Source: a virus (Duplodnaviria > Caudoviricetes). From it: DNA of 64,000 nucleotides. Position 1 is the stretch's first letter. Each line of letters opens with the position of its first letter. This document shows positions 2,180 to 64,000 of this stretch, piece after piece. The stretch spans positions 21,611 through 85,610 of the IMG/VR virus record IMGVR_UViG_3300022555_000031; one strand, 5' to 3'. The translations under genes were made by a program, and so were the position numbers. Under the pieces are notes generated by a model that saw only the letters and a program-made list of their open reading frames with translations, searched no databases and was not told where the DNA came from.

Positions 2180-2181
2180 CA

Positions 2182-36591: not shown

Positions 36592-39500
36592 ATGTCTATA
36601 CTGCTGAACTTACATACAGCCGAGGAGCAACTTAAACTTTTTGACGACTCACCTGGTAAAGGGGAAGTTAAAAAGGAAGAGAAGCCCCAGGGTCGAGTAG
36701 GCTTTAGAGCAGACTGGCAGAGTATTTGGGACGAGCAGGACGACGCAATGTATTCCGAATACTTCGACTGGCATTCAACCTTACCAGCTTGGCTCTCCAA
36801 GCAGTGGATAAGGCGTTTTGTTATTAAGGAAGACGGAGAGCAGTATCCTATACAGATGCTTGAACGTATGAGCGATAAACAGTTGAGCGGTATGTTCAAA
36901 CGTTACTATGGGGATGCGTTGAAGGGTCAGGTCCATACGGCAAAGAGAGAAGACAGTCTCGAGCCGACTCTTGGCGGGGACCTGGGGTCTGAGCAGGGTA
37001 TTCCGCTTGTTAATTTTCATTCAGAGGAGGATGCGGAGAGGTTCTTAAATGCGACCAAGGGGCTCAAGTTAAACTTTCATTGGGAAAGACAGGGCCAGGT
37101 TGTTGTATTAAACGACCCAAGGTTTGGAAGCACAGAGGTTAAGTCTTATGTAAAAGGATTCATAGACCCCAACGAAGAAACTTCATACCTTGCTGGCCAG
37201 GATATGCAGATGATGGCTGAAGCTGTGGGGAAAGTAGAGAAGACGGCCAATCAAAAAATGACCAGTAGCAGTGCCTTTATTATGCCCAATGGAAGATTAC
37301 AGCCAGTGTGGTCGCATGAAGGTTGGCTTGCTGAGCAACACAGAGAGTTAACCGAGATGCTGGACGCTGGATGGATACGGATATCCACGATGTCTCCACA
37401 GGAAGTTGGCTTGGAGTTCAGCGTATTAGATGATGATTCTGCTGAAAGAATAGAGAAGTTCTTGAAGGTAAATTCATTCACTGTCGTAACAGTAGATTGC
37501 ATGGACGGTGTCAAGCAGTTAAAGATAAAAGATATTCTTCGGGACGGGTTCTGGACTGCCTTCAGGAAGGCTGAAGAGGGCTTTTCGTATACAGACGAGT
37601 CCCTTCGCTATAAGCCTTACCAGCCCCAAGAGGGTGTCGGCACGGACAGAATCCTTCCCCCGTTTGCCAGTAGACATACAAATATGACCAAGACTGCCCT
37701 GTTTGCGGGGAGTGGAGTAATCGACCCCAAGGGAAATTTCAAGACCGTTTTCACTCATGACAACTTCGCAGAAGAAATGGGCATGACTCCGCAGGAAGTT
37801 CTGAAGGCGGGATACGTTAGAATATCTGTTTACTCACTGAGACTTGTGGGCGTACAGTTCTGGGAAGAGACGCCAGAGATTTTGATGCGGATAGACAACT
37901 TCCTTGTGGAGAATCCGTATCGGAAGGTGAGGGTGGAGGTCGCAAGTAAGGAAAATACTTACAAGGAACTTTCTATTGAAGACATCCTGGACTTTGGCTT
38001 CGAAGGGGCCCTGCACGGGAAGGCTAAGGACAGGGAGTGGCTACCAGGTGCACGGAAAGAAACATTAACGAAGAAAGCTGACGGTATATTTGAATATGAC
38101 CAGAACGCTATGGATGCGATGTCGGACGGCTCAAGGGGTCAGCAGACAAGAAGCATAGAGTATCTGCCACAGGACCAGAAGCAGTGGTGGCTGGAATACC
38201 TGGAGAAGGGCAAGAAGAACTTCCCAGGGAAAAAAGATACGGTCCCGCCAGAGAGTGAAGAGGGTGGCGTATCGGTGGCGGGTAAGAACGCCAAAGTAAA
38301 GACCGCAGGGATAAACTTCGTGGGCAACTATGTGTTTTATCCTGACGGCAGGTTTGAGTTTTATAAGGCACAAATAGATGAGCATGTAACCTATCCAGAG
38401 AACTGGCTCGAGTGGGACGATAGAACGTTTGGCCAAATGATGAGGGATGGTGCAACTATAGGGACCTTGTGGGCCCGTATCGATTACGGGTGGGATAAAG
38501 AAAAGGACATCGACCTTGGTATCATCACCTATGACCTTGAGGTGAGGAACCATCGTGGAGATTTATCCGATGAGCAGGTTAAGAAAATCATGGACGCCTT
38601 TGGTATAACGGCCAGACCAAGGACAAGAGACAGGGGTGGCGAAGAGATAGTAATGCCCAAGGACGAAGCAATAAACTTTATCAACGGCAGAATCAACATC
38701 CTTCTGCGTGAGGGAGCAAAGAAACCTAAAGGCCAGAGGGATGATGTTGGGGCGGAAGAGCAAATATTAGAATACATAGAAAACGCATCCCGCTTTGCGG
38801 ACCAGGGTAATGCTGGTATGTTTGCGGGAGCACTCTATCAATTGATGGGTGGTGGCAAAATTTATGTCATTATGGATGAAGCTGGTGACGTTTATAATGT
38901 GGCATTCTTCTATGAGGATAAGTTTTACGACATGATGGGTATTGTGACCAAGGAAGAGCTACTGGACTCGTTCCAATATAATGGAGATGTTGATGAGAAC
39001 GGCGTGGGCGTTAAGATGGATTTGGTGGAATGTAATTGGATGGATGCGGAATACGCCATGCCGTATGCTTCAGCGTATATGGACGAGATAATCTCGGCCA
39101 TGATGGGGCAGGAGAGTGTCGCAGAAGAGGACGACTGGCGGAAGTCTTATAATAAATACATGGGGGAATACAATAAGTGGCAAGGCGAGTATCCCGAATA
39201 CTCGTCAAAAGATTGGGCGAATTATAAGTATGAACCGCCTAAAGACGAGGAGATTACCCTGGAGTCTTTGTATCCAGATATCATGCAAGACCTGGCTCCG
39301 ATATTCCAGCAATACGGAGTTGGCCAGGATATTTTGAACGGGTTAAAAGTCATCAAGACCCATGTATATGCTCCGTTCTACGCTATCATGGAGAAGCAGA
39401 CGATAACTTTGTATTCGCTGTTTTTCGGGCTCCAGGAGCCAATCCGTAAGGCGAAACTGCTTCACGAGATTGCCCATTATATCCAGGAGAAGACTGGGAC

Positions 39501-40665
39501 TGATTGGGGCACAGAGGAAGAGATTAAACAGGCGATTCAATTGGAGACCGACTACAAGGAACGCAAGATAACACCCAAGGAATTCTTTGAGATATACCTT
39601 GCGTATCCGCATGAGCTGAAGGCCTATAAAGTCGAAGTTGACTATCTACGCAGTCAGGGCATGGCTGATGCACAAATAAAGGAACAGCTGATGGCTGACC
39701 TTACGGCGGACAGTGAAGCTGTTATCGACAGGATTCTCCAGCAGGCCAGCATGTTTGGGTTCACCAAGAAAGCCAAGAGGCAGATATACAATGGGATAAC
39801 GTGGGAAGAAGAGTATACCCCGCTGTTGCCGAAGAAGAGAAACTTCTATAGATGGGTTGGACATATGGGGGATGGGTTTACTCATAGATATGTGATTCTG
39901 AGGGCGGATGTTCCGACCCTGGAGAATGTGGCCAGGGTGGTTGCTCAAAAGGTGGATTCGGATTCTTGTCCGTCTGCGAAATATTTCCAGGACCTCCAAG
40001 AGGCCATTGATTTTGTTGGTGATAATTTTGGTATAGATGTAAGCAACGTAAGACTGACCCCCGTGTCTGCGGGGATATCTCGTAGGGACAGGGATATTAT
40101 CGGGTATAAGTTGGTCAACGATATCTCAAAAGCCCTGGAGGATACGACATCTATTCTCTCCCGTGTGGACATGTTTATCGGTGGCAAGTTTAACGAAGGA
40201 GAGAAAACTCCGACAATCTTCGCCCGCTTCATAGAAAATAGTTGGTCAGAGGATATAGCGTTCCTTAAAGGGTCTCTGGGCGGGGCAGAAGACATGCACA
40301 CTTTTATTAAGAATATGTGGCAAAGGTTTATACCTCAGAGTTGGAAGCGTGATAACTATATAGTGAAGAATAAAGTTATCCCGATGGCGAATAGATTGCT
40401 CGATAGCGGATTGACGGCGAATGAGATTCGTGCCGAGTTGCAACGCATTGCCCCAAACAACTATTTTGTGCGGGCCATGATTGAGCATATTATTTACACC
40501 GAGATAGACCCAACATTAGAGGGCGACAAAGAGAATAAAGATGTTGATATAGACGCTGAATTATCGGAAGCATTAGAGTATAATACGAATGACACGGCCC
40601 ATTTAATGCCGTTACACGATATGCACATCCCAGGGCACCGTGAAGGAATAATAGGGGAAGATTAA
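36592..40665 (+). CDS. modular polyvalent-type protein D (1357 aa) with a zincin-like metallopeptidase module
   Basis: One NILLREG (38695); many KxA junctions; LLHEIAHYIQ...PHELKAY. Confidence 0.7.
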   Translation: MSILLNLHTAEEQLKLFDDSPGKGEVKKEEKPQGRVGFRADWQSIWDEQDDAMYSEYFDWHSTLPAWLSKQWIRRFVIKEDGEQYPIQMLERMSDKQLSGMFKRYYGDALKGQVHTAKREDSLEPTLGGDLGSEQGIPLVNFHSEEDAERFLNATKGLKLNFHWERQGQVVVLNDPRFGSTEVKSYVKGFIDPNEETSYLAGQDMQMMAEAVGKVEKTANQKMTSSSAFIMPNGRLQPVWSHEGWLAEQHRELTEMLDAGWIRISTMSPQEVGLEFSVLDDDSAERIEKFLKVNSFTVVTVDCMDGVKQLKIKDILRDGFWTAFRKAEEGFSYTDESLRYKPYQPQEGVGTDRILPPFASRHTNMTKTALFAGSGVIDPKGNFKTVFTHDNFAEEMGMTPQEVLKAGYVRISVYSLRLVGVQFWEETPEILMRIDNFLVENPYRKVRVEVASKENTYKELSIEDILDFGFEGALHGKAKDREWLPGARKETLTKKADGIFEYDQNAMDAMSDGSRGQQTRSIEYLPQDQKQWWLEYLEKGKKNFPGKKDTVPPESEEGGVSVAGKNAKVKTAGINFVGNYVFYPDGRFEFYKAQIDEHVTYPENWLEWDDRTFGQMMRDGATIGTLWARIDYGWDKEKDIDLGIITYDLEVRNHRGDLSDEQVKKIMDAFGITARPRTRDRGGEEIVMPKDEAINFINGRINILLREGAKKPKGQRDDVGAEEQILEYIENASRFADQGNAGMFAGALYQLMGGGKIYVIMDEAGDVYNVAFFYEDKFYDMMGIVTKEELLDSFQYNGDVDENGVGVKMDLVECNWMDAEYAMPYASAYMDEIISAMMGQESVAEEDDWRKSYNKYMGEYNKWQGEYPEYSSKDWANYKYEPPKDEEITLESLYPDIMQDLAPIFQQYGVGQDILNGLKVIKTHVYAPFYAIMEKQTITLYSLFFGLQEPIRKAKLLHEIAHYIQEKTGTDWGTEEEIKQAIQLETDYKERKITPKEFFEIYLAYPHELKAYKVEVDYLRSQGMADAQIKEQLMADLTADSEAVIDRILQQASMFGFTKKAKRQIYNGITWEEEYTPLLPKKRNFYRWVGHMGDGFTHRYVILRADVPTLENVARVVAQKVDSDSCPSAKYFQDLQEAIDFVGDNFGIDVSNVRLTPVSAGISRRDRDIIGYKLVNDISKALEDTTSILSRVDMFIGGKFNEGEKTPTIFARFIENSWSEDIAFLKGSLGGAEDMHTFIKNMWQRFIPQSWKRDNYIVKNKVIPMANRLLDSGLTANEIRAELQRIAPNNYFVRAMIEHIIYTEIDPTLEGDKENKDVDIDAELSEALEYNTNDTAHLMPLHDMHIPGHREGIIGED

Positions 40666-40689
40666 AGATTCTACAAGGGAGAGCGAACT

Positions 40690-43600
40690 ATGAGTGACGT
40701 CATAAAAAAACTAACTGATTTATTCGGGAGAACACGGCCTTCGGCGATGGCTAAGATGTCATTGGGCCTGGACAAGAGTCCAGAAGTCCAGCAGATTCTT
40801 AACGATATGCCGAAGTCCAATCGCCAAACAGGCTTGGAAGAGAAATACCGTGGCGACTGGAACAATCAGACCAATAAAGAGCAACCTGTCGAACAGTTAC
40901 CTAAGCATCCAGGGGAAGAGAAGAAGCAGGACAATGTGGAAGATGATGTTGAGTTGGACGAGCAGGGTAACTCGATACCGAAGAAGCCGAATATGTTCGA
41001 AAAGATACAAGAGCTTGTGTCCCCGCCTACAATATTTGTAAGCCAAGTCGTGAAGAGACATATGGAGCGGAAGGCCTTTGACAATCCCGACCCAGATGCG
41101 GACCCGCAGGAAGGGAGAGACACCAGGTTGCTTGACCCAGAGAACCCCGAGTATAAACGTAGGAAGGGGTTTGGTAAACCGTTTGGTGATGCCTATGAGG
41201 GTGGAGAGTTGAAGTGCAATGTCCCTGCGGTCATGTCTTATGGGGTAGATAAATATGCCAGAGACAAAAACGAAATGACCCCAGCGGAATTGGAAAAAAT
41301 CAAGAAAGAATTCTCTAAAGTAAAATGGGCCCCCAAGAAGGACGCTCTTGTCTCTGAGAAATACAAGAAGAACTTCCATAGCTTCACTGGCACCATCGCT
41401 ACAACGAAACAAACGACAACCTATCAGGTGGTAGCAAGGTCGCAAGATACATTCCACGAAGACGTAATATCTTACCCGTTCCAACTGATGTTAATTCGGA
41501 CCGTGATAGAGAACAACGCATCCAAGCCAAAAGAGAAGACCCTATTAAACCCTGCACTTACGGGTAACCTTGCGAAGCGTATTACGCTCGGGTTTACGGA
41601 AGCAGAAGCGATGACCTCGTATATGGCCGAAATAAATATCCCAATGAAGGGTGTGGCGTTCACAAGCCTCTCACCAGCAGAGTTGGTTGAGCAAAAACTG
41701 CAATCATGCAGTGACAGCTCGGCTCCAGAAAAGAAAATGATTCATCTGCAAAACGCCATCAATTATGCTGGGCAAGACAATGCACTGAGGCAGATTGTCT
41801 CTAATTTTATCATGTCGGAGTTTAAGGATGGCGAGGATAACCCCTGGTTACAGGAGTTGTTTAGATTCGTGTCATCTGCGAAGATACTCCGCCCAGAGCA
41901 ACTGGAGAGCATAGTTTTTAGTTTTTACAAGAAAGTGGGGTTGGCCGAGACCGATGTTCTCAAGATGGACTTCCCGCAAGAAATACTCCGCAAATGGTTG
42001 GATGATGTTATCAAGAATAGGAGCGGTAACGTTAACGTTGAGGCCTTGGTAGTGCAATTAGACGACCTGTCTCTTTGGAAGAAGGTTTATAGTGGAACGG
42101 AATGGATGAAGATAGTGAAGAAATATGCACCCGAAAGGTATGAGTTGGCTCAGATTGGTGCGACATTTGCCGAGAAGATGCGGAGGATGCCACGCATACA
42201 ACAATCGAAAGAGCTTGTTGATGCCGTTAAGCAGATTACGCAACACTATAAAAACAAAACCCCCGAGTGGCAGGCGTTCCAGGATAAGATATCTAAAGGG
42301 CGTGTGAGCAGGAAAGACTTGAGTGAGTTCCTTGAGTCTATTGGCGTTAAGGCTGAGGCCTGGACTGACATCTTCCCAGCGAAGACTGTCTACGACAAGA
42401 GTGAGGTCAACAGTTTGTTCGAGAGATTATTTAAGTCTCTGGGGGATAAAGTTGAGACAGAGTTGACCCAATTCTACGAGACCAAGGGGAAGCTGGCCAA
42501 GCAATATGCCAAGGTTCGTAAGGAGCGTGAGGAACTTTTCGCTTCATCCTACAAGAACCACGACAAGAGGTTCAAGGACCAACCGAAGCTGGATAAACTT
42601 CAGGCACAAATGAACGACATACAGCGTGGTTGCACTATGGCGGAGGCTGAGAGAATAAAAGCCATGCCCAGTGGAGAGGAAAAGAAAAGAGCAATGGATG
42701 CGGTTAACGCCAAGAGTATGTCTGACGCAGAGCTTGCATATTGCGAACTCCTGGATGTGGTACTTAATGGTGAAGGCTTTGGGGTACCTGTCGAGAAGGT
42801 CAGGCAGTTGTTCTCTTCTCTTTCAGCGAAATATCCAGAATTATACCCAACAAAATCCATTATGGGGTTGCTCAATAAGCCGTCTTACACGGCAAGCGAG
42901 GTTGAGTTGCTCGTCAAAGATTTCATGGGGTTTGCGGAGGAAATAGATAAAGCGAATGAGAAACCCGTAAAGGCTCCCAAAAAGGAAGAGGCTCCAAGAC
43001 CGCCGAAGAAATGGCAGGAGATGACCCCTGCGGAGCAGGAAGAGTATAAGGCGTTCAAGGCACGCTGGGAAGCGGAGCATCAAGCACCAGCCCAGCAACA
43101 GCCACAGCAACCGCAGACGAAGAAGTATAAGGCTCCGTTTGCCTATGGGACGGACTACAAGGTGTATGGCAACAGCAATCAGTTTAATATCTACTTAAAG
43201 TTTGACCCAAATTTCACGCCAGTCCCCGTTGAGATTATGGACAAGGTAAATTATAATGCCCACGGGGAAGGGTATGGTTGTGACGCTCAGGGGGCTATTT
43301 GTTGGGCGAGGTGTTTTTATATATCGGTTGAGAATTTCACTGCTTGGGTTGTTCTTGAATTGCAGTCGGATGTGGTGACGCAATGGCAAAAGAGACTTTA
43401 TCCAACCCCCATCCAGCCACTCGTGAAAGAGCCACACCCAGAGTATGCCATGTATAGAAGCACTGTCCAGAATTATTATAATGATTGGGCAAGTGCATTG
43501 TTTAGGGAAATTTTAAGACTCGCCAAGGAGCGTAACGTCGAAGTGATTTACGTAAGGTCGGCTCAGGCTACTACGATTTGGACTGACCATGTGAAGAACA

Positions 43601-44370
43601 GTTTGAACAAGGTGAAATCGAAGGAGTTGACCGAGGAACAAATTGAGACAGATTTGTTTTATAGGACTTATTATAACGCAGTTGAGCCGTTTATCGAGAA
43701 GGACCCCGATGGCAGGGGACGGTTGAGAGATAAGGGTGACATTCGAGCTGACCTTGAAGAGAAGTTTCCCGCACAAGAGATAAAAAAAGAAGTCCAGAAG
43801 CAGTGCTCCAGGGCACTTGAACAGGCAACCGATTACATGGTTGTTAACGTGGCCCAGGTGCCGATAGAAGCGTTTGCGTTCGGGACTAAGGGTATAAGGC
43901 AGTTTGCGTTCAGGATGGAGCGTGGCAGGTTAATGCTGGCTGAGGTGGTCAGAAGGGCAAACACCAACGCAGACCCATTATACTGGGCCAAGTTGATTGG
44001 TAACTGGATAGACAATTATATGCCGAGAACAATAGAGGAAGATGTCCTTGGGTTGCCAGAACCACAATTGGGCCACAGCGGGAAAAGCGTGCAGGATTTG
44101 CGTGCAATGGTTACTGACAGTTGGATTCAGGAGAAGGAGAATGGTTTCTTTCGCGACTTCTGGTGGTCGAGAAGTCAGTTTTTAATTGACAGAAGGTTAG
44201 GGGATAGCCTTTGCCCAGAGGACTTGCAATATGATGAGGAGTTTATACCTGCAGTCGTGCAAGGGTTACAGAGTCTTGGATACAGGGTGAGGTTACCAAA
44301 GAGTTTCGTCAAGTATTGGGCAAGAAAAGGCAAGACGTTCGAGCCTAATTTGTTACCACAGGAGGGCTGA
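40690..44370 (+). CDS. large putative internal virion protein (1226 aa)
   Basis: Helical N-terminal region and a W.R...VVLELQSD...W...LFREIL..A domain resembling those in phage polyvalent/ejection proteins. Confidence 0.55.
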   Translation: MSDVIKKLTDLFGRTRPSAMAKMSLGLDKSPEVQQILNDMPKSNRQTGLEEKYRGDWNNQTNKEQPVEQLPKHPGEEKKQDNVEDDVELDEQGNSIPKKPNMFEKIQELVSPPTIFVSQVVKRHMERKAFDNPDPDADPQEGRDTRLLDPENPEYKRRKGFGKPFGDAYEGGELKCNVPAVMSYGVDKYARDKNEMTPAELEKIKKEFSKVKWAPKKDALVSEKYKKNFHSFTGTIATTKQTTTYQVVARSQDTFHEDVISYPFQLMLIRTVIENNASKPKEKTLLNPALTGNLAKRITLGFTEAEAMTSYMAEINIPMKGVAFTSLSPAELVEQKLQSCSDSSAPEKKMIHLQNAINYAGQDNALRQIVSNFIMSEFKDGEDNPWLQELFRFVSSAKILRPEQLESIVFSFYKKVGLAETDVLKMDFPQEILRKWLDDVIKNRSGNVNVEALVVQLDDLSLWKKVYSGTEWMKIVKKYAPERYELAQIGATFAEKMRRMPRIQQSKELVDAVKQITQHYKNKTPEWQAFQDKISKGRVSRKDLSEFLESIGVKAEAWTDIFPAKTVYDKSEVNSLFERLFKSLGDKVETELTQFYETKGKLAKQYAKVRKEREELFASSYKNHDKRFKDQPKLDKLQAQMNDIQRGCTMAEAERIKAMPSGEEKKRAMDAVNAKSMSDAELAYCELLDVVLNGEGFGVPVEKVRQLFSSLSAKYPELYPTKSIMGLLNKPSYTASEVELLVKDFMGFAEEIDKANEKPVKAPKKEEAPRPPKKWQEMTPAEQEEYKAFKARWEAEHQAPAQQQPQQPQTKKYKAPFAYGTDYKVYGNSNQFNIYLKFDPNFTPVPVEIMDKVNYNAHGEGYGCDAQGAICWARCFYISVENFTAWVVLELQSDVVTQWQKRLYPTPIQPLVKEPHPEYAMYRSTVQNYYNDWASALFREILRLAKERNVEVIYVRSAQATTIWTDHVKNSLNKVKSKELTEEQIETDLFYRTYYNAVEPFIEKDPDGRGRLRDKGDIRADLEEKFPAQEIKKEVQKQCSRALEQATDYMVVNVAQVPIEAFAFGTKGIRQFAFRMERGRLMLAEVVRRANTNADPLYWAKLIGNWIDNYMPRTIEEDVLGLPEPQLGHSGKSVQDLRAMVTDSWIQEKENGFFRDFWWSRSQFLIDRRLGDSLCPEDLQYDEEFIPAVVQGLQSLGYRVRLPKSFVKYWARKGKTFEPNLLPQEG

Positions 44371-44633
44371 TGAATAGCACGAATATTGTGAAACGGTTCC
44401 AAACTCGCAAGGGGTATTCTGATGAAGAATTGAGAAGAGGCGTCCCCGCCGTTGAGTTTGCTATTAAGGAAATGGAGCACCAGAAGATGGAGGAGCCTGA
44501 GATTCGTGAGACCCTCCAGGACAATGGTGTCCCAGGGCAGGTGGTTGATAACACGTATGATAATCGGGAAAGAAAACTCATTAAGCACACCACCAAGGAT
44601 GATGACGTCGAAATAAGGGAGGCTGGCGAATGA
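44370..44633 (+). CDS. hypothetical protein
   Basis: TGATG overlap; C-terminal DDDVEIRE. Confidence 0.6.
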   Translation: MNSTNIVKRFQTRKGYSDEELRRGVPAVEFAIKEMEHQKMEEPEIRETLQDNGVPGQVVDNTYDNRERKLIKHTTKDDDVEIREAGE

Positions 44634-47188: not shown

Positions 47189-47191
47189 TAG

Positions 47192-49409: not shown

Positions 49410-49439
49410 AAATTTGATACGTTTTAGGGAGGATTCCAT

Positions 49440-53359: not shown

Positions 53360-53378
53360 AATTTAAGGAGGAAATACT

Positions 53379-55625: not shown

Positions 55626-55660
55626 CAGCCAACGCAGGAGTAACGTCAGCCAGCGTTGGG

Positions 55661-56232: not shown

Positions 56233-56251
56233 AAAAAGAAAATAATAAATA

Positions 56252-58438
56252 ATGTCACAAGGGAGACGGAACATGGTTGAGTCGATAGTCCCGAGCAACG
56301 AAAGGGGCCCAGAGATAATAGTCGATAACGTTAACCAATCGTTCATTGACATGCAGAAGACCGCTGGGGCCGACGGCGTTGTCAAATACAGTGCCAAGCA
56401 AAACCTCCCGCAAATCCCGAAGAGTGCGATGCGTAGGATGGCACAGGCCAAGGCCGACATATTCAGACAGCCAGCAAGTTTCTATCACCCATTATACGAA
56501 GGTATCAATCTTCAGTTACCAACCAAGACAAGGGAAATTAACCAGTGGTGCCGTCACTTTTACAAATGTCTCACCCCAGACACAATGGTTTTGATGGCAG
56601 ATGGGAGCACGAGTTGGATAACAGATGTGAAGATTGGAGACAATGTAATCACGCACAATGGAACCCCTGCAAAGGTTAACGAGGTCTTCAAGAAAGACAT
56701 AGAGGATGAGTTGTATGTTGTTTACACCAAGGGCATCTTACGGCCAATTAAAGCGACCAAACAACATCCTTTTTACGTTATAAAGAAAGCTACTGATGTG
56801 AACGTTGGGGCTCCTGTGTTCGTGGAAGCAAGGGATTTGCAGGTTGGTGATTACGCCTTATATCCGATAAACAACAATGATACTGTGGATGTGGAGAGGC
56901 ACATTAAGGCGTTTGGGAGCAATGTGCGGATACTTCGCAATGGATACATGTTGCATGAGATAGAGAAGATTGAAAAAGTAGGCAAGTATGTTGGCAAAAT
57001 TTATAACCTCAACGTTGAAGGTGAGTTCAATTCCTTTGTTGCGGGTGGCGTAATAGTTCACAATACCGACGCTATGGTCGGCACCGCTATAGATATTCAC
57101 AGTGAACTTCCGCTTACTGGTTTTACCAATGTGTGTGACGACCCTGCAATCCAAAAGTTTTTTGACATCATAGCGTTTGATGTCCTTCACCTCCCGAGCC
57201 TTTTAAGAGACATAGCTTTGGAGTATTGGAAGGTTGGGAATGTGTTCCCGTTTGGAGAATGGAACGAAGATTACGGGGTGTGGACCAGGTTCTCTTTGCT
57301 GAATCCAGACTTCGTAGAGGTTGAGAAATCTCTTCTTATTGACCACCCTATAATGAAACTGGACCCAGATGACAATCTGAAGAGAATTATTACAAGCAGG
57401 CAACCGAAGGAACTTTATGAACAACTTGCCAAGATAGAGGACGGTGCGATAGTTGCATTGATAGCCAGGGGAGAAAAGGTCCCACTGGATAACGACCATG
57501 TTTCGCACATCGCTCATAAGCTGGCATCATATGAGACCATTGGAACCCCGTTAATGTTCAGGGTGTTCAAGCCTCTCATATATAAGGATTTAATCAGAAG
57601 GGCACAGATGGCGATAGCGGAAAGGCATATCACCCCGCTTAAACTCGTTAAGGTTGGTTCGGACACGGCCCCAGCGACTCCAGATGCTATCACAAACGTC
57701 AGGGAGAGCCTGGATTCACTTGGCTCCGATTTAAGTGCGTGGTTTGTTTATCACCATGCTATATCGGTTGAATATGTAGCGTCCAGTGGGCACGTGATGC
57801 CATTGAATACAGAGTATGACTGGATAGAAAAAGAAATGTTAATGGGTCTCGGAATCAATAAGGCAATACTTATCGGGGAAGGCCCTACGTACGCAAATGC
57901 CTCAGTGGGTTACCAGGTTCTTGTGAGCAGGTATATAAAGTTCCAGAACATGCTTATAGACTGGATTAAGACCTTCGTCTACAAGAGAATCGCAGAGGAA
58001 CAGGGGTTTTATAGGGTCGACCGTGTCAGTGGGTTAAAGGAATTGATAATCCCTGATGTCGAGTTCGAGTTGATGAGACTGAAGGAAGACGCTCAGTTAA
58101 GGAATCTTTATTCAGGAATGGTCAAGTCTGGGCTCATCAGCAAGAGGACGTTCTATGCGAATCTTGGAATCAATTACGAGAAAGAAACACGCCAAATCCA
58201 GAAAGAGAAACTGGAAGAGAAGCGGATGAAAGAGATAGAGAAGGGCAAGGAACCGCCGAAACTTGGTCCTGGGGAAGATATGGGTCTGGGGGCTCCAGGC
58301 GGTATGGGTGGTGGCATGGGTGGTGGGATGGGCCTTGAAGAGGCACTTGATGGCGGTCCCGCAGGTGGTGACTTAGAGGGTGATAGCGGAGCCCCAGGCG
58401 GTATGGGCGGAACTCCTCCAGCACCAGAGGTGGCATAA
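56252..58438 (+). CDS. portal protein (intein-containing)
   Basis: Precedes the gpF-like and protease genes; about 560 aa after splicing; GNVFPF, LNPD.VEV and AQ.AIA.RH.TPL patterns; Gly/Pro-rich tail. Confidence 0.75.
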   Translation: MSQGRRNMVESIVPSNERGPEIIVDNVNQSFIDMQKTAGADGVVKYSAKQNLPQIPKSAMRRMAQAKADIFRQPASFYHPLYEGINLQLPTKTREINQWCRHFYKCLTPDTMVLMADGSTSWITDVKIGDNVITHNGTPAKVNEVFKKDIEDELYVVYTKGILRPIKATKQHPFYVIKKATDVNVGAPVFVEARDLQVGDYALYPINNNDTVDVERHIKAFGSNVRILRNGYMLHEIEKIEKVGKYVGKIYNLNVEGEFNSFVAGGVIVHNTDAMVGTAIDIHSELPLTGFTNVCDDPAIQKFFDIIAFDVLHLPSLLRDIALEYWKVGNVFPFGEWNEDYGVWTRFSLLNPDFVEVEKSLLIDHPIMKLDPDDNLKRIITSRQPKELYEQLAKIEDGAIVALIARGEKVPLDNDHVSHIAHKLASYETIGTPLMFRVFKPLIYKDLIRRAQMAIAERHITPLKLVKVGSDTAPATPDAITNVRESLDSLGSDLSAWFVYHHAISVEYVASSGHVMPLNTEYDWIEKEMLMGLGINKAILIGEGPTYANASVGYQVLVSRYIKFQNMLIDWIKTFVYKRIAEEQGFYRVDRVSGLKELIIPDVEFELMRLKEDAQLRNLYSGMVKSGLISKRTFYANLGINYEKETRQIQKEKLEEKRMKEIEKGKEPPKLGPGEDMGLGAPGGMGGGMGGGMGLEEALDGGPAGGDLEGDSGAPGGMGGTPPAPEVA
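56567..57064 (+). mobile_element. mini-intein (166 aa) in portal
   Basis: CLTPDT... block A; ATKQHPF block B; IYNLNV block F; VIVHN/T C-terminal junction; no endonuclease. Confidence 0.9.
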
Positions 58439-58767
58439 TGGCACACGAACCGATGTTGGATTATAAGTTGCTCGAGCAATTCTCTTTCCAAGAGGTCATT
58501 AAGATGACCCAGGATGCGGAGGCGAGAAAGAAATTAACCTATCGCATGGGGTCTACTCCTCAGGGGAAGTATGGAAAGATGGTCGACTACATTAAGTCTA
58601 AATATGGTAAAGAAGTTTTTGCCGACAAAGTTGATAAAGTTATCAGGACGTTCTTTGAGGATAAAATAAACATCCTATTGGATGCTCCTGAAAAGTACGA
58701 CGGGCAGGCCATGAAGATAGACTTTGCGGATTTGTTTAAGAGACTCTCTGAACCCGAGGTGAAGTAA
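58438..58767 (+). CDS. hypothetical protein
   Basis: TAATG overlaps at both ends. Confidence 0.65.
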   Translation: MAHEPMLDYKLLEQFSFQEVIKMTQDAEARKKLTYRMGSTPQGKYGKMVDYIKSKYGKEVFADKVDKVIRTFFEDKINILLDAPEKYDGQAMKIDFADLFKRLSEPEVK

Positions 58768-60434
58768 TGGGCAAGTATGTCTCCTTTTATAAGGTGGCCG
58801 TTGAAGAAGATATGTCTCAATGGATACTCGAAGAATGGCTCAAGGCTGGGTTCAGGGAACTCGAATGGGAATACGCCTATGAGGAATGGAAGGACACCAA
58901 GAAGTGGAAGGACCAGGGGAGTGTTTGCCCGACCTGTTTCGCTCTGGACGGTCATAGGTTTAAGATTCAAGATGTTCTGGATAAAACCACACATAACGCA
59001 CCGAAGTATTCCATGAGCCACGTTGGGTGTTTTTCAAAGGACACGGAAATATATACTGAAGATGGGTTTAAGTTGGTAAAGGATGTTAAGGTGGGAGACA
59101 AAGTGTTGGCGTTGAACCCAAAGACTCTTGGCCTTGACTGGGTCAAGGCGATAGACACTGTGAGTTACAAGCAGGATAAGATGATACACTTCCACAATAA
59201 GAACCTTGACTTATTGGTAACTCCAAACCACAGGATGTTTCATGTTACGCCATACATGAGGTCGTTGGGTCGGAAGGAAGGAAAGTTTATCGAGGCAGAT
59301 AAATTGCCAAAATCAGCATTATTTTATCGTTCCTCTGAATGGAAGGGCAAGGACAATAATGCCCTGCAATTTGGTTTGACTATGGAAGAGTTCTGTAAGT
59401 TTATGGGGTATTTCTTGGCGGAAGGCAGTCTGGGGCGGATTAACCAAATAATGATTGCACAGTTTGATAAAGCAAAAAAGAAGAAAATGTGGAACGATTT
59501 GAGGGTTATGAACTTCAAAACAGTGTCCAATGTAAAACAGGGTATCTATATTAACGCACCAGAGTTGTATAATTACTTGAAGCAGTTTGGTAAATGCAAC
59601 GAGAAATATGTTCCGAGGATGATAAAAGAGCTACCCGCCAAACTAATTAGGATTTTTCTTGATGCGTTCAGGTTGGGAGATGGGTCTACCGTGAAACCCA
59701 AGCAGAAAATAGGTGGATACGAAGCGAAGGTCAGGAGGACGTATTGGACATCCTCAAAGCGTATGGCGGATGATTTAGGTGAGCTAATAATTAAGGTTGG
59801 CAAGAGGCCGTGTTATTATCTTGCAAAACGCAAAGGGAAGGTACAGCATTTCAAAAACGGGGACTATACCATAAACCATGATGTATGGACTGTCGGTGAA
59901 GGTAATGGTATTTATTCTGGCGGGTGTAGGAGCCGTGTAAAGAGAGAAGTGGTTGATTACAATGATTACGTGTATTGTGTTGAATTGGAGAAACATAATA
60001 CATTGTTGGTCCGTAAGAGTGGAACGGTTGTTTGGTCTGGGAATTGTTACTGTAGGATGAAAAGGATACCCAGGGAGGATGAGAGACTGGACTATCCGAA
60101 GGAACAGGAAACGAAAACAATGGAGCAAAAGTTAGACGACATTGGTTACACGGTTGTCCATATAGAAGAGGGCATCCGTGATTTATTTCAAAGACAGGGT
60201 GTTAAGTTTGAGGAAAGCGACATCCAGGACGTGAAGCAAAAGGTCCTTGAGTATGCCGAGGGATTGTCGATGTCAAACAAGAGCACAGCTCGAGACCAAA
60301 TCTGGAGAACGATACAGAGAGAGGTTTGGGCGATTACGAAGCAACGGAAAGGTAACGCCAGCTACTTTGGCTTTATTAGGATAGCGAATCAGGTCAAGAG
60401 AGAATTAGGGAGGACTTTATATGGCAATGAATAA
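58767..60434 (+). CDS. minor head morphogenesis protein (SPP1 gp7/Mu gpF-like), intein-containing
   Basis: VCPTC..LDG...SHVG|CYC reconstitutes the gpF CxxC...HxxCxC motif; lies between portal and protease. Confidence 0.75.
   Translation: MGKYVSFYKVAVEEDMSQWILEEWLKAGFRELEWEYAYEEWKDTKKWKDQGSVCPTCFALDGHRFKIQDVLDKTTHNAPKYSMSHVGCFSKDTEIYTEDGFKLVKDVKVGDKVLALNPKTLGLDWVKAIDTVSYKQDKMIHFHNKNLDLLVTPNHRMFHVTPYMRSLGRKEGKFIEADKLPKSALFYRSSEWKGKDNNALQFGLTMEEFCKFMGYFLAEGSLGRINQIMIAQFDKAKKKKMWNDLRVMNFKTVSNVKQGIYINAPELYNYLKQFGKCNEKYVPRMIKELPAKLIRIFLDAFRLGDGSTVKPKQKIGGYEAKVRRTYWTSSKRMADDLGELIIKVGKRPCYYLAKRKGKVQHFKNGDYTINHDVWTVGEGNGIYSGGCRSRVKREVVDYNDYVYCVELEKHNTLLVRKSGTVVWSGNCYCRMKRIPREDERLDYPKEQETKTMEQKLDDIGYTVVHIEEGIRDLFQRQGVKFEESDIQDVKQKVLEYAEGLSMSNKSTARDQIWRTIQREVWAITKQRKGNASYFGFIRIANQVKRELGRTLYGNE
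59028..60044 (+). mobile_element. LAGLIDADG intein (339 aa) in gpF-like gene
   Basis: CFSKDT start; VTPNH block B; FMGYFLAEG and FLDAFRLGDG; VYCVEL block F; WSGN/C end (penultimate Gly). Confidence 0.9.
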
Positions 60435-60615
60435 AATTGGTGGAGACAAGAAGCCAGGTATCCAGATTTTTGATAAAGAGGAGAAGGCTTTCGTGTCCCA
60501 AGATACCATGATTAAAAAGGCGATGGGCAGACAGAAGTGTCCTCATTGCGGGAGAAATATCCCGTCTGATGCGGTCACTTGTCCGTTCTGTAAATGTGCC
60601 GTAGGGGGGGTGTAA
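60421..60615 (+). CDS. small Zn-ribbon protein
   Basis: CPHCG...CPFC; GGAGG RBS. Confidence 0.65.
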   Translation: MAMNKIGGDKKPGIQIFDKEEKAFVSQDTMIKKAMGRQKCPHCGRNIPSDAVTCPFCKCAVGGV

Positions 60616-63600
60616 ATGTTTACAAAATATGCAAAGGTCAGTGGCAAAATTATAAGCCACCGTGCGAACTGGGAAAAGTGCGGTGGGTGTGAGAACGGCG
60701 GAAGCGGTTGCGATTGGAAGGGACTCGGCACCTGTAAAGCAATGATACCTATAAAATATGCCGATGTCCTTGGTGCGTATAAGAATGTAGTCGACCAATC
60801 CCCCAACCCAGACATTGCTCATCCCGACGTAGCGAAAGCGAACGTGGCCAGGGTTGCAATGTTGAACCCAGAGTTCCTTTACACAAGGGTTATCGGGGTG
60901 CACGGCGACGAGATGAATACCAACGGAGACATGTTCCGCTGGGGAAGTATTTCGGATAAAAATGCCCCAGAGCTTTTGAGGCACGACGAGATACTTGGCA
61001 AGCCAGTCTATGCGACTTTTGTCGGCAAGGGGAACTATAAGGACCACCAGAACGACAGCGTGACGAAGGCAGTTGGTATCCTCCTGGATGCCGTGCCAAA
61101 CCACGCAGTTAAGGGTATAGAACTGCTTATAGCAACAGATAGGAACAAGGACCCATACCTTGTTCGGGGTATTGAAACGGGTTACATTACCGACGTAAGT
61201 ATGGGGGCGGTATTGCCTGGAACAAAGATAAGTTTACCATCAGGTGATAATATTCTCGTTGAAAACATTATCCCTGGCATGGAGGTCCTCACCCATAAAG
61301 GGAACTACAAGAGGATAGATGTGGTCCAGAAATCAGACATAACTGGTTCGGTTGTTCATATTAAGGCCGAGGGTGGGAGTGAATTATTTTTAACTGGCGA
61401 CCATCCTTGCTGGGTAATCAGTGGGAATCAGAGGAATGAAAAAACAAAATGGAGAGCGAGGCTCTCTCATCAACGACAGATAGCGGGGAGGAAAATGGAG
61501 CGGGAGAAGAAGTCTAATTTGGAAATGACCCAACTATCTCCTTCGTTCGTAGAGTCGAAACATGTGAAGGTTGGGGATTATATTGGCATCCCGTATCCCA
61601 GTAAAGTTGAAGAGGATTATCTCGCCAATAAAGATTTTGCAAGATTGATGGGATACTTTGCATCTGAAGGGTACATAATTACGCAAGATGGCAAGATGGG
61701 AGGGGTTGGTTTTTCCATTAACATTAACGAGACTGGTTTGGCGGAAGAAATTGCTGGGCTTTGTAAAAAAATATTCAACAAAGAAGTCCAGGTAAAAGAA
61801 GTTCCAGAAAGAAACGGGATGTATGTGACGTTTTATGACAACACTGCAACCAGGATGTTTTATGACTATTGCGGGAAGGGTGCCAAAACCAAGGTATTGA
61901 GTCAAAAGATAATCCATTGGAAGCCAGAGTTACAGTTGGAGTTCCTTGGGGCTTATGTAAATGGTGATGGATTCCAGGCGAAGAACGGCATGGTATATTG
62001 CTCTACAGCCTCCGAGGTCCTTGCAAGACAGTTGCAGTGGATGTTTTTGAGATGCGGTATCATAGCTAATAGGCAGATGCTAAACCATAGGGGCGGGAAG
62101 AATTCGGTAGTTAAGATAGACACCATTGAGCACCAGGTTGCGATTGGAGCTTGGTTTTCAAAGGAACTGTCGGAGGTTTGCAAGGTCTCCGAAAAACGGC
62201 CATTGAAATGGCAGTTTACGAAGTTTATAAAAGATGGATGCCTGTGGACGCCAATTAAGTCGAAAGAGGTCGTGAAATACGATGGAAATGTATACGATTT
62301 ACAGGTCCAAGACGATGAGTCCTTTGTTGCCAATGGACTTTGTGTTCACAACTGTAGAGTGGCGTATTCAATTTGCTCGATATGCGGGAACGTTGCCCAT
62401 ACCGAGAAGGAATATTGCACCCACGTAAAAACGGCAAAAGGGGGTGAAATCAACGGACAGTCCGTATACGAAGACAACCGTGGCGTAGAATTTATAGAAG
62501 AATCCTGGGTCACGACAGGTGCAGATATTAAAGCAAAGTTTCTTGAAAAAATTGCCTCAAAGGCGTATAATACATTATCAGGAAACAAATTACTAACCCT
62601 TGTTGCAGAACTTGAACGTGATTTTGGAACACAAAATGCGTTAAAAGTTTTGGCTGATGCGAGGGCATACTTAGGCACTAAAAAATACTTTATAGGAGGA
62701 GACACTATGTCATTCAAAGTTACGAGGTCAGAAACCTCTAATGCACCAGGCGAGGTGCATCAGGCGGAGTCGGTGAAACTGGTAGAAGAACTTGCAAGGA
62801 TGGACAGTGCGGGAAGGGGTGCGACGAAGGGCGGAATGGCCCCAACGGACCTGCTTGCAATGGCGAAGAGTGCCGACCCTTATAATGAATCGGTTCCCAC
62901 GAACTCCATTGACACGTTAAGCAAGGAGCAAGGGAATACCCAATCAGTAGACCAGAACGACCAAATCACAAAAGTTGTTGAGACCGATGTTTCAAAGAGA
63001 GTTAACGTCGACCTCAACAAGAAAGTAATCGAAACCGCTCCCGAGACCGAGATACAAAAGGTTGTGGCTGGAGTTAAGGCTATCAGGGAAGCCAACAACG
63101 AACTCAGGAACATTTACCTCCCGAAAACGGCTGACAGTGTTATCGGCAGACTGAGAGCGAGAATCGGCAGAACTGCGGAGTCGGAAGAAAGACCCGTACA
63201 GTCTGTTGAAGACGGGAAGCAGAGATATAAACCCGACCCAGAAACAAGGGACGAGGAAGCGAGCGAGGCTCTTAAATCCGAGAGCACCAAGGAAAGGGCA
63301 AAAGAACCTACAACTGACAGGCCTATCACCAGAAGGTCAAAGAGGCTTGAGCTCCGTGGCAGGATAGCGGAACTGCAGGAAAGGTTTAAGAAACTTGCGG
63401 AGTCCGACGATGAAGCGTCGAGACTGCGTTCCAAACCAGAATCATACACTCCCGAAAAGACCGAAGACATTGACTATGAGTCTTCTGCAAAGGCAACGGA
63501 GAGTGCAATCAACAAAGAGCACAGCAAGAGAGACAGCGACAAACACGTTACCTCACCGCTCAAAACTCAGCTCTGGAGAGATAACAGGCCAATGAGGACT

Positions 63601-64000
63601 GCGGTTGAAGAGCCAGGCAAACTCCCAGGGATAAAGAATGTTAAACCCGAGGGCGACGCCAGTGTTGTCGGCAGGCAGATAGACGAGGTCCAGAATGCAC
63701 TTAAAGGTGTTGCCAACGTAGACGGCAACCTGGAATCTCAGGTCGGCACGCTCGAGAAAAAGATACAGGAACTCGAGGTAGCGAAGGCCAGCGGGAAATC
63801 AATCGGCCTTGCAAAGGAAGGGGCGGTCTCGATGGAGAAGATAGTCGACGGCACGTTCTCTTTCATGGACAAGATTGCCGAAATGATGGACGAGATTTCA
63901 GACGAGATAGATAAGCACATCGCTGATACCGAAAAGAAAGAGAGCAAGGTTGCTTCGGTAAGGCTTGCGAAGGACGAAGAGCACGAAGAGAAGGAAACCA
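60616..64000 (+). CDS. prohead maturation protease (intein-containing) fused in frame to a scaffold-like region; runs off the window
   Basis: Translated by hand and open to 64000 (absent from the ORF track); NTNGDMF, KDH (His), DVSMG|CRVAYSICSICGN (Ser); charged coiled-coil C-terminal part with an internal GGAGGA RBS and ATG 62707. Confidence 0.8.
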   Translation, partial: MFTKYAKVSGKIISHRANWEKCGGCENGGSGCDWKGLGTCKAMIPIKYADVLGAYKNVVDQSPNPDIAHPDVAKANVARVAMLNPEFLYTRVIGVHGDEMNTNGDMFRWGSISDKNAPELLRHDEILGKPVYATFVGKGNYKDHQNDSVTKAVGILLDAVPNHAVKGIELLIATDRNKDPYLVRGIETGYITDVSMGAVLPGTKISLPSGDNILVENIIPGMEVLTHKGNYKRIDVVQKSDITGSVVHIKAEGGSELFLTGDHPCWVISGNQRNEKTKWRARLSHQRQIAGRKMEREKKSNLEMTQLSPSFVESKHVKVGDYIGIPYPSKVEEDYLANKDFARLMGYFASEGYIITQDGKMGGVGFSININETGLAEEIAGLCKKIFNKEVQVKEVPERNGMYVTFYDNTATRMFYDYCGKGAKTKVLSQKIIHWKPELQLEFLGAYVNGDGFQAKNGMVYCSTASEVLARQLQWMFLRCGIIANRQMLNHRGGKNSVVKIDTIEHQVAIGAWFSKELSEVCKVSEKRPLKWQFTKFIKDGCLWTPIKSKEVVKYDGNVYDLQVQDDESFVANGLCVHNCRVAYSICSICGNVAHTEKEYCTHVKTAKGGEINGQSVYEDNRGVEFIEESWVTTGADIKAKFLEKIASKAYNTLSGNKLLTLVAELERDFGTQNALKVLADARAYLGTKKYFIGGDTMSFKVTRSETSNAPGEVHQAESVKLVEELARMDSAGRGATKGGMAPTDLLAMAKSADPYNESVPTNSIDTLSKEQGNTQSVDQNDQITKVVETDVSKRVNVDLNKKVIETAPETEIQKVVAGVKAIREANNELRNIYLPKTADSVIGRLRARIGRTAESEERPVQSVEDGKQRYKPDPETRDEEASEALKSESTKERAKEPTTDRPITRRSKRLELRGRIAELQERFKKLAESDDEASRLRSKPESYTPEKTEDIDYESSAKATESAINKEHSKRDSDKHVTSPLKTQLWRDNRPMRTAVEEPGKLPGIKNVKPEGDASVVGRQIDEVQNALKGVANVDGNLESQVGTLEKKIQELEVAKASGKSIGLAKEGAVSMEKIVDGTFSFMDKIAEMMDEISDEIDKHIADTEKKESKVASVRLAKDEEHEEKET
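61207..62352 (+). mobile_element. LAGLIDADG intein (382 aa) with non-canonical Ala1
   Basis: AVLPGTKI start; LTGDHP block B; LMGYFASEG and FLGAYVNGDG; VYDLQV block F; CVHN/C end. Confidence 0.88.

Follow-up and report, generated by a model that had tools for sequence, protein, structure and literature searches.

A head-module motif built on [KR]-x-A in a relative of Bacillus phage G and its probable role in prohead-protease cleavage

In phage T4, IPI-III and Alt each carry a capsid targeting sequence (CTS), a short peptide that ends in a protease site and is thought to load unrelated cargo. It is a single leader at the N-terminus, 10-19 residues long, with the cut at its end, and it does not stay on the cargo. 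A second kind of protein that is relevant here is the polyvalent protein of phages and conjugative elements, reportedly described by Iyer and colleagues in 2017. The prohead proteases of T4 (gp21), phiKZ (gp175) and SPN3US (gp245) recognize the motifs L/I-x-E, S/A/G-x-E and A-x-E, respectively (PMC5694885, PMC10052503). These motifs are found in many head-internal proteins, in the scaffold and in the protease, with extra copies within propeptides, and proteases of this type process themselves at their own C-terminus (PMC5694885, PMC10052503). Herpesvirus assemblin, at both its release site and its maturation site, cuts after Ala before Ser or Thr, with predicted pseudorabies virus sites at YLQA|T and VQA|S (PMC4498786).

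The window analyzed here, a stretch of 64,000 nucleotides, is the terminal part of an 85.6-kb contig from an uncultured phage that is a distant relative of Bacillus phage G; its major capsid gene falls past the contig end. Phage G is, to our knowledge, the sole cultivated megaphage, and its genes run in the order gp14 (portal), gp19, gp20-21 and gp27 (capsid). In the window, the portal gene (ORF 56252) is followed by ORF 58767 and then by ORF 60616, which encodes a protease with a scaffold-like part. An uncultured relative with 66% GC, L043, has its portal, protease and scaffold-capsid genes in the same order as the window and phage G. The protease gene thus follows the portal gene and precedes those for scaffold and major capsid protein, as is typical of the prohead protease superfamily.

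Frequency and context of the motif in the head module

The original prediction treated the bare tripeptide [KR]-x-A as a free-standing junction code, and the copies that it named are present: MQKTAG in the portal, and PKTAD, GRTAE and MRTAV in the scaffold-like part of ORF 60616. A comparison with the early genes had also been proposed, and it shows an enrichment, but the effect is modest. The head module, taken from ORF 13223 onward (16,372 aa), holds 171 copies where 128 are expected (1.33-fold, p = 2e-4), as against 88 observed and 79 expected in 9,121 aa of early-gene products, a set that takes in the 21.6 kb preceding the window. For positions 36592-64000 without their tag-linked sites, the counts are 108 observed and 82 expected. 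About 75% of the head-module copies are expected by chance, and the bare tripeptide, which ranks 21st of 1,548 gapped pairs, is therefore too loose to be a junction code. By ORF, the excess is found in 49440 and 53379 (Table 1) and in 60616 (19 observed, 12 expected), and there is none in 36592 (11 and 10.5), 40690 (10 and 13.3) or 44630 (9 and 8.6), three of the seven ORFs that had been named.

Nor is there support for K-x-A as a marker of domain boundaries, as had been suggested. Local hydropathy and disorder-type composition at the sites are the same as background, neither more hydrophilic nor more linker-like, and a single-sequence AlphaFold model of ORF 53379 reached a pLDDT of 38.5, which makes it unusable for placing boundaries. 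A use of K-x-A in all head proteins is not supported. An N-terminal site within 50 residues is found in 10 of 14 late proteins and 21 of 51 early proteins, a weak difference. Calling junctions requires a context of five to seven residues rather than the bare tripeptide.

With such context included, the signal in the head module is much sharper. M-x-[KR]-x-A occurs 24 times where 3.6 are expected (p = 1e-12), as against four times in the early genes (2.4 expected), and over the window the count is 25, whereas shuffles give 4.6 and none of 2,000 exceeds 14. Methionine lies two positions ahead of the K/R at 17 of 105 sites (3.1 expected, p = 1e-8), and M-x-R-x-A and M-x-K-x-A rank first and fourth, respectively, among all gapped residue triples of the late proteins. 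On the other side of the tripeptide, [KR]-x-A-[SDEGN] is found 80 times in the head module (43 expected, p = 3.5e-7), the P1' and P5 residue classes in these counts having been picked after inspection of the data. The whole excess of [KR]-x-A is confined to copies with S, D, E, G or N next. Copies followed by other residues are flat in the head module, as are the controls A-x-[KR], [KR]-x-x-A, [KR]-A and [DE]-x-A. The fuller signal in this phage reads (G)-[M/other hydrophobic]-x-[K/R]-x-A, then S, D, E, G or N, with S/T in place of the M/hydrophobic residue where a tag precedes. The excess survives removal of the tag-linked sites and peaks in the stretch beyond 42 kb of the window, adjoining the portal and protease.

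At the sites, Lys and Arg are encoded by five different codons and Ala by each of its four, and the motif is evidently under selection at the protein level. A DNA-level signal was ruled out by this diversity of codons and by the same excess in the 66% GC relative.

The signal is also found across the clade. In the phage G head module, K-x-A occurs 53 times where 26 are expected and K-x-A-[SAGNT] 31 times where 8.3 are expected (p = 1e-9). Over the other 131,000 aa the ratio is 1.03-1.07, and spacing controls are flat. When phage G was divided into 20-kb bins, the first bin was enriched 2.78-fold and all others 0.67-1.75-fold; gp7, gp11, gp19 and gp4 are four of the top six among 652 ORFs. Together, 15 uncultured relatives carry 833 copies of [KR]-x-A (623 expected, p = 6e-16) and 46 of M-x-[KR]-x-A (15 expected), again with flat spacing controls. 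The L043 counterparts of ORFs 49440 and 53379, its protease and its scaffold are all enriched, and its TerL is not. What stands of the earlier claim, then, is a K/R-x-A signal specific to the head modules of this phage, phage G and the 15 relatives; its informative part, the flanks, had been missed.

Conservation was judged against control patterns. Family-wide conserved [KR]-x-A columns number 16, versus 3-4 for same-composition spacing controls, and 17 sites stand in exactly the same column in the window and in L043, versus 6-10 for such controls. When a shift of +-3 columns was allowed in the phage G families, 41% of sites were retained, no more than for unrelated control tripeptides (16-44%); a difference emerges solely against the composition-matched spacing controls. 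In gp27, the capsid protein of phage G, a G-R-x-A is conserved at residues 22-25, yet the PDB sequence of gp27 begins at residue 1, a point against cleavage at the motif. Cleavage data are absent from the main text of the 2025 phage G multi-omics paper, and a text search of the literature turned up no relevant account of a K-x-A rule for prohead proteases.

The protease of ORF 60616 and candidate cleavage sites

ORF 60616 has a blast match to phage G gp19, and both gp19 and the N-extein of the window protein match PHROG 18299, annotated 'head maturation protease' (E 2.6e-19 and 2.7e-8, respectively). Searches with ORF 60616 and gp19 gave no Pfam S77/S78 match and no PDB sequence match. The nearest language-model neighbors of the window protease are Peptidase_S77/S78 clusters, with recognition below the tool threshold. 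His129 and Ser180 are invariant in 13 protease homologues, and hhalign pairs them, non-significantly (probability below 1%), with His and Ser motifs in both T4 gp21 and HK97 gp4, which we take to be catalytic; in this superfamily the catalytic Ser comes about 50 residues after the His.

The motif lies on either side of the protease core. Ahead of it, [KR]-T-A is invariant in 12 aligned homologues; past it, L/M-E/Q-[KR]-V-A is invariant in the same 12, with S or N as the next residue, and F-L-E-K-I-A-S of the window protein occupies this position. When the more distant L043 protease was aligned as well, it proved to have retained the post-core Ala, and the Glu and Val of that site are kept in at least 90% of the 13 homologues including L043 (lists of invariant and near-invariant positions). 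A signal that flanks the core in all homologues is expected of a prohead-protease site. Cleavage motifs of the T4, phiKZ and SPN3US kind are over-represented in head proteins and would be expected in the protease, scaffold, portal and major capsid protein; the motif here is found in the first three (the second being the scaffold-like part). As far as sequence comparison goes, the motif is non-random, head-module specific, clade-wide and present on both sides of the protease core.

Table 1. Positions in the window of ORFs, tags and sites with [KR]-x-A (observed and expected counts as given).
Feature	Position	Strand	Remarks
Polyprotein ORF 13223	13223-16954	+	[KR]-x-A: 12 observed, 7.2 expected
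ORF 13223, four NIL[LE]REG with [KR]-x-A	13559-13594, 16061-16096, 16376-16414, 16850-16888	+	
Polyprotein ORF 17755	17755-25806	+	Twelve tags, 8/12 followed by [KR]-x-A
ORF 17755, tag with [KR]-x-A, first four	18223-18258, 18682-18717, 19132-19167, 19594-19629	+	
ORF 17755, tag with [KR]-x-A, other four	20089-20124, 20683-20721, 21154-21189, 21655-21690	+	
ORF 17755, G-M-M-R-K-A-S	23257-23271	+	No tag
Listed site of the tag/K-x-A set	26094-26132	+	
ORF 30267, M-x-[KR]-x-A	30798-30812, 32292-32321, 33459-33473	+	
ORF 30267, NILEREG with R-T-A-S	33174-33212	+	
ORFs 36592, 40690, 44630	36592-47188	+	Good-context single candidates at 37684-37698 and 41062-41076
ORF 49440	49440-51941	+	[KR]-x-A: 18 observed, 10.3 expected, z 2.8
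ORF 49440, six M-x-[KR]-x-A	49569-49583, 50124-50138, 50142-50156, 51354-51368, 51639-51653, 51702-51716	+	
ORF 51941, M-F-R-E-A	52400-52414	+	8 residues ahead of the mCpol domain
ORF 53379	53379-55625	+	[KR]-x-A: 16 observed, 6.5 expected, z 4.2
ORF 53379, M-x-[KR]-x-A	54075-54089, 54624-54638	+	
ORF 53379, repeated G-T-I-G-M-P-R-K-A	54867-54893, 55170-55196	+	
Portal N-terminal extension	56351-56443	+	M-Q-K-T-A at 56351-56365, R-R-M-A at 56432-56443; upstream of conserved core
ORF 60616, gp19-like head-maturation protease, intein-interrupted, fused scaffold-like C-terminal part	60616-63999	+	Frame open at contig end
ORF 60616, R-V-A	60850-60858	+	Immediately ahead of conserved core
ORF 60616, F-L-E-K-I-A-S	62539-62559	+	Directly past core
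ORF 60616, scaffold-like part, further sites	63124-63132, 63169-63177, 63595-63603, 63946-63957	+	

Close relatives of ORFs 53379 and 49440 were found neither in IMG/VR nor in JGI metagenome contigs, and a protein database search yielded P0002 as a single useful orthologue. Two sites of ORF 49440 are conserved in it, G-[MI]-E-K-T-A-S and G-[ML]-x-[KR]-x-A-[SG], the latter persisting though nearly every other position differs. The L043 orthologue of ORF 49440 is likewise enriched (26 observed, 16.8 expected), with K-T-A-S-A and M-x-R-x-A-S conserved, and ORF 53379 has in common with L043 a [KR]-x-A-S-A in the N-terminal region and the second of its R-K-A copies. ORF 51941 contains a Pfam mCpol domain (aa 166-278), and the M-F-R-E-A ahead of it is a weak candidate because the site is not conserved in L043.

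Both portal sites in the window align with sites of phage G gp14, namely M-x-K-x-A and R-K-M-A, and the portal alignment extends to L043. The first site has no general conservation among relatives and is not conserved in L043. Among the 15 distinct relatives with a readable extension, the second is in place in four and absent in three (L028 has a 5'-truncated ORF, and L030 has none); in the other eight a [KR]-x-A lying 2-3 residues further on takes over from it.

We consider it probable, at roughly 60%, that the extended motif is the cleavage motif of a phage-G-type (gp19-like) prohead protease, encoded here by ORF 60616. The cutting itself, the enzyme responsible and the scissile bond are all what we infer from these alignments and counts, with [KR]-x-A as the likely P3-P1 core of a maturation cleavage motif. 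Head-internal proteins and the scaffold-like protein would be taken up into the assembling prohead along with the protease and the N-terminal extension of the portal, and the ORF 60616 protease would then cut the prohead-borne proteins after the Ala of the motif.

The NILLREG tag and other explanations of the motif

There are 22 copies of NIL[LET]REG, spread over ORFs 13223, 17755, 25872, 30267 and 36592. That most of them are followed after 2-3 residues by [KR]-x-A was correctly noticed in the original prediction: the tripeptide begins two (nine copies) or three (five copies) residues past the tag Gly in 14 of the 22, where about 0.3-0.4 would be expected. All 14 lie upstream of positions 36592-64000, the range to which that prediction applied, and the sole tag copy within this range (ORF 36592, aa 702) is followed by AKKPKG and no K-x-A. 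In an alignment of nine ORF 17755 modules (22-41% identity), the post-tag K-x-A is present in eight, and indels start a few residues past it.

A search for NILLREG in phage G and the relatives found it absent, and the tag is therefore a lineage-specific addition; since these phages do carry the K-x-A signal, the idea of NILLREG as an add-on to an older code agrees with the data. The accompanying idea that NILLREG is trimmed off on maturation does not, because the putative cut at K-x-A falls downstream of the tag and would leave it on the C-terminus of the upstream module. ORF 17755 stops only four residues past its last tag, with no K-x-A there, and ORF 25872 has one tag 13 residues short of its C-terminus. 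These tags at natural C-termini are compatible with a tag that would be retained at the C-terminus.

If the motif is a cleavage motif, the giant polyproteins would thereby be split into modules of about 150 residues, with the lineage-specific NILLREG remaining at the new C-terminus of each. A more tentative proposal is a two-part system of loading and dicing, in which an ancestral [hydrophobic]-x-K/R-x-A code, common to phage-G-like megaphages and cut after Ala, may have become coupled to the new NILLREG tag. A single chain of 2,683 residues could then be packed into the prohead and yield at least a dozen cargo modules, each tagged C-terminally. The tag would play the part of the T4 CTS, but would be internal, occur repeatedly and stay on the cargo.

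Alternatively, the motif could be a docking or capsid-targeting peptide for the scaffold, capsid interior or portal, which loads proteins and is itself uncut. Its specificity to the head module suits such a role, as does its attachment to a long invariant NILLREG, too long for protease subsites. There would also be nothing to release where tags lie at natural C-termini, and AlphaFold gives the tag and K-x-A of one module, with moderate confidence, as a helix against the next module and not as a free linker. We nevertheless think this unlikely, since docking does not explain the invariant sites flanking the protease core, a classic place of autoprocessing, or the repeated occurrence of the motif within single proteins, in their scaffold-like and N-terminal parts. 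It also overlaps with cleavage by the prohead protease, because the T4 targeting sequence and cut site are one element.

It is improbable that the sites are cut by some other enzyme, such as the zincin-like HExxH module of ORF 36592, which contains H-E-I-A-H, a gp2-type zinc peptidase or a host protease. A zinc-dependent peptidase does adjoin the terminase in phage G and five relatives, but the gp2 matches include none from the window or L043, nor is there one among the L043 ORFs in the stretch from TerL, though both phages are enriched, and the gp2-type peptidase is thus ruled out as the common enzyme. Similarly, the loci of phage G and its relatives lack an ORF 36592 homologue, yet the motif is present. 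The gp19-like protease is the sole enzyme common to all, and its own boundaries carry the motif.

We give little credence to a structural feature, such as an N-terminal helix start or a linker habit, inherited by duplication and without a role in processing. The excess spans unrelated families (portal, protease, scaffold, gp4, gp7, gp11, and ORFs 49440 and 53379), is confined to head modules in phages of 47% and 66% GC, and is not matched by same-composition spacing controls, which are flat, even though many tag-linked copies are paralogous, K-x-A is helical in the AlphaFold model and single sites are replaced about as often as other tripeptides. An explanation by chance and composition alone, without any functional motif, holds for most single K-x-A copies, as the 1.3-fold excess and rank of the bare tripeptide and the three named ORFs without enrichment would suggest, but it is refuted for the extended motif, whose M-x-[KR]-x-A count was not attained in 2,000 shuffles and whose independent replication in phage G and 15 relatives (p 1e-9 to 1e-16, controls flat) leaves this explanation almost no probability.

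Comparison with described cleavage codes and targeting sequences

Like the motifs of T4, phiKZ and SPN3US, the K-x-A core has three residues with the middle one free. Those proteases all cut after Glu, whereas the conserved last residue here is Ala, and neither [DE]-x-A nor Glu-based patterns are enriched in the head modules of this phage or phage G; K-x-A is therefore not the known Glu code. By analogy, the candidate cut sites resemble the Ala|Ser of herpesvirus assemblin rather than the T4/phiKZ Glu rule. Assemblin (MEROPS S21; pUL26 precursor) and ORF 60616 are alike in having the protease and then the scaffold in one chain. The release-type site of assemblin and F-L-E-K-I-A-S both lie directly after the protease core, with further sites toward the scaffold C-terminus. 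We know of no part for Lys/Arg at P3 or Met/hydrophobic at P5 in the herpesvirus cleavage rule, and no sequence similarity was detected between the ORF 60616-type protease and S21. Unlike the assemblin precursor, the protease and scaffold of phage G and L043 are separate genes.

The T4 CTS is the nearest analogue of NILLREG with K-x-A. Unlike the CTS, which is a single N-terminal leader ending at the cut, the NILLREG tags are internal or C-terminal, number up to 12 per chain, lie upstream of the putative cut and would be retained. The ORFs also resemble polyvalent proteins in being giant multi-domain chains whose modules are unrelated, one of those in ORF 36592 being a zincin-like peptidase, but polyvalent proteins have no described punctuation by an invariant tag and a head-protease-type site.

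If cleavage by the gp19-like protease is correct, the head proteins of phage G and its uncultured relatives after processing would be predictable from sequence, along with their propeptides, the fragments of the scaffold and the proteins that are internal or ejected. This phage would also provide a testable model for how large multi-domain chains become separate capsid cargo. Prohead proteases with T4-type language-model neighbors would then not be bound to the Glu rule, with an assemblin-like Ala|Ser possible.

Setting of the head module

The window makes up the final 64 kb of an 85.6 kb contig, with every gene encoded on the plus strand. The portal (ORF 56252) shares 39.5% identity with its counterpart gp14 in Bacillus phage G, whose gp19 matches ORF 60616, and ORF 11502 encodes the large terminase. 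Everything from ORF 13223 up to the contig end can thus be equated with the phage G head module that runs from terminase to protease. This module spans about 10 kb in phage G and about 43 kb in the window, expanded through giant multi-domain ORFs, while the major capsid gene lies past the contig end. C-x-x-C-G is found six times among the early proteins (window positions 1–9600), where chance predicts 0.17, pointing to numerous small zinc-ribbon proteins; ORF 7321 carries a T5orf172/MUG113 domain. In the middle region, G-x-x-G-x-x-G is among the most over-represented triples.

Features in and around the head module
Feature	Position	Strand	Remarks
Collagen triple-helix ORF	27125-28636	+	Pfam Collagen, E 2e-16; inside head module
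R-E-G-A-K-K-P-K	~38707 (ORF 36592 aa 706)	+	After that ORF's sole NILLREG
Minimal CRISPR polymerase (mCpol) domain protein	51941-53359	+	Placed among putative head-internal proteins
R-E-G-A-K-K-P-K	~55092 (ORF 53379 aa 572)	+	Without tag
Intein/Hint domains	56252-58438, 58767-60434, 60616-63999	+	Pfam; split portal, next large ORF and protease; protease intein also has a LAGLIDADG domain
gp19-like protease and scaffold-like part, single open frame	60616-63999	+	Frame exceeds contig end

A head-specific motif defined by its flanks

The original prediction held that the tripeptide [KR]-x-A marks domain boundaries in seven ORFs, the portal N-terminus and the scaffold, and might be the protease cut used in all head proteins. 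On its own the tripeptide stands out little, with 171 occurrences against 128 expected in head-module proteins and 88 against 79 in early proteins, a set that also takes in the 21.6 kb preceding the window. Among the 1,548 gapped residue pairs of the late set, K-x-A comes no higher than 21st. ORFs 49440 and 53379, both named in that prediction, do carry an excess, as does ORF 60616, whereas the equally named ORFs 36592, 40690 and 44630 show none when observed and expected counts are compared per ORF.

The information is carried by the flanks of the motif. The entire excess sits in copies followed by Ser, Asp, Glu, Gly or Asn (80 against 43 expected, compared with 91 against 85 for all other residues). 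Upstream, Met is found two residues before the Lys or Arg at 17 of 105 late sites (3.1 expected), and the window holds 25 copies of M-x-[KR]-x-A, where shuffling gives 4.6, with at most 14 in any of 2,000 rounds. An unbiased listing of all gapped residue triples in the late proteins places M-x-R-x-A first and M-x-K-x-A fourth, with K-x-A-S, K-T-A and A-S-M likewise high. Codons vary freely at the motif sites, so selection acts at the protein level.

Part of this signal is linked to the heptapeptide tag NIL[LET]REG, present in 22 copies in ORFs 13223, 17755, 25872, 30267 and 36592. At 14 of these copies, [KR]-x-A begins two or three residues past the tag Gly, where about 0.3–0.4 are expected. 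Among the nine modules of ORF 17755 that were aligned, identity is down to 22–41%, yet eight keep K-x-A after the tag; indels start a few residues beyond it. The predicted coupling is thus real, but every one of its 14 instances precedes the interval 36592–64000 to which it had been assigned. The enrichment survives removal of tag-linked sites, climbing to 2–3 fold from 42 kb to the window end, and hydrophobic-x-[KR]-x-A peaks at about 3.9-fold in the 50–58 kb bin. Because the Met of M-x-[KR]-x-A frequently has Gly before it, the tag-linked R-E-G-[S/M/T]-x-K-x-A and the tag-less G-M-x-[KR]-x-A look like one motif. ORFs 36592 and 53379, otherwise dissimilar, also share an identical octapeptide (see table).

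Conservation in phage G and uncultured relatives

In the phage G head module, K-x-A occurs 53 times against 26 expected and K-x-A-[SAGNT] 31 times against 8.3, whereas the ratio is 1.03–1.07 across the 131,000 residues outside it and spacing controls are flat. By 20-kb bins, the first reaches 2.78-fold and all others fall between 0.67 and 1.75; of the 652 ORFs, gp7, gp11, gp19 and gp4 are all among the top six for enrichment. Fifteen distinct uncultured relatives (portal ±10 kb each) have 833 [KR]-x-A against 623 expected and 46 M-x-[KR]-x-A against 15, again with flat controls.

The nearest relative found is the uncultured locus L043, with L052 (IMG/VR 3300038829_000269; 139 kb, 66% GC, classed as a provirus). 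The L043 portal is 56% identical to that of the window, gene order is conserved between the 44630-like gene and the scaffold, and an mCpol orthologue occupies the matching position (37% identity). In L043 the protease, the scaffold and the counterparts of ORFs 49440 and 53379 carry the motif excess, which the terminase lacks. NILLREG occurs neither in phage G nor in the uncultured relatives' loci examined, and L043, which lacks it, has only about 18 kb from terminase to portal; polyprotein expansion and tag are therefore specific to the window lineage.

Several individual sites are also conserved. Across gp19 and eleven aligned homologues, [KR]-T-A shortly upstream of the conserved core and L-E-[KR]-V-A directly past it, mostly followed by Ser or Asn, are invariant; the window protease has F-L-E-K-I-A-S at the latter position. 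In the otherwise poorly conserved portal N-terminal extension, the window and phage G have M-x-K-x-A and R-[RK]-M-A at aligned positions, and most relatives retain the second site or swap it for [KR]-x-A two to three residues away. ORF 49440 keeps G-[ML]-x-[KR]-x-A-[SG] in a database orthologue (70% identity) though almost all other positions of that site differ, and K-T-A-S-A and M-x-R-x-A-S in the L043 orthologue (31–34%). All homologues of the phage G capsid protein gp27 (L001 23289–24137) have E-x-G-R-x-A-L-A near residue 20–27; the gp27 sequence in PDB 6wkk comprises residues 1–280 of 282. Across families, 16 conserved [KR]-x-A columns compare with 3–4 for same-composition controls. Crude site retention is no higher for [KR]-x-A than for unrelated tripeptides, and some candidate sites, such as those of ORF 51941, are not conserved. 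We are highly confident that the motif is a genuine signal specific to the head.

A candidate protease and a processing model

A PHROG with the annotation head maturation protease is hit by gp19 and by the ORF 60616 N-extein; sequence searches of Pfam and PDB with the protease were empty. Language-model neighbours in Peptidase_S77 and S78 clusters offer a lead only, and the family's invariant His and Ser fall on the active-site motifs in T4 gp21 and HK97 gp4, in alignments that lack statistical support. A gp2-type zinc peptidase, which phage G shares with some relatives, is ruled out as the common enzyme by its absence from the window and L043. Since the zincin-like module of ORF 36592 also has no counterpart in relatives, the gp19-like protease is the sole candidate common to the motif-bearing genomes.

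We put the probability that the motif is the cut site of this head protease at roughly 0.6. By analogy with known systems, the enzyme would cut after the Ala, and polyprotein cleavage would free modules of ~150 residues, each ending in NILLREG plus five or six residues. Such ends resemble the native C-termini of ORFs 17755 and 25872, where the tag lies near the stop, so the tag is more likely retained than trimmed on maturation as originally proposed. That interpretation is upheld in part, in the head specificity of the motif, its place on both sides of the protease core and the tag as an addition. An AlphaFold model of one module (pLDDT 77.5; core at about residues 18–158 of a 181-residue piece) puts the upstream tag with its K-x-A into a helix of moderate confidence beside the following module, which argues slightly against the linker being freely exposed.

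The mechanism class, a prohead-protease cleavage code with internal protein loading, is already known: in T4, phiKZ and SPN3US a single prohead protease trims itself and many head proteins at a three-residue motif (PMC5694885; PMC10052503). A literature text search, whose reach may not extend to phage G cleavage data, found no K-x-A prohead-protease rule. Past F-L-E-K-I-A-S, the ORF 60616 chain runs on into a part whose L043 homologue is a scaffold-like gene of its own; protease and scaffold are separate genes in L043 and phage G but share one frame in the window. In herpesviruses, the pUL26 protease-scaffold precursor is laid out in a similar way, and assemblin frees itself from the scaffold by a cut between Ala and Ser or Thr (PMC4498786). 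The putative recognition rule carried by the motif is not the Glu-based one that giant phages studied so far follow.
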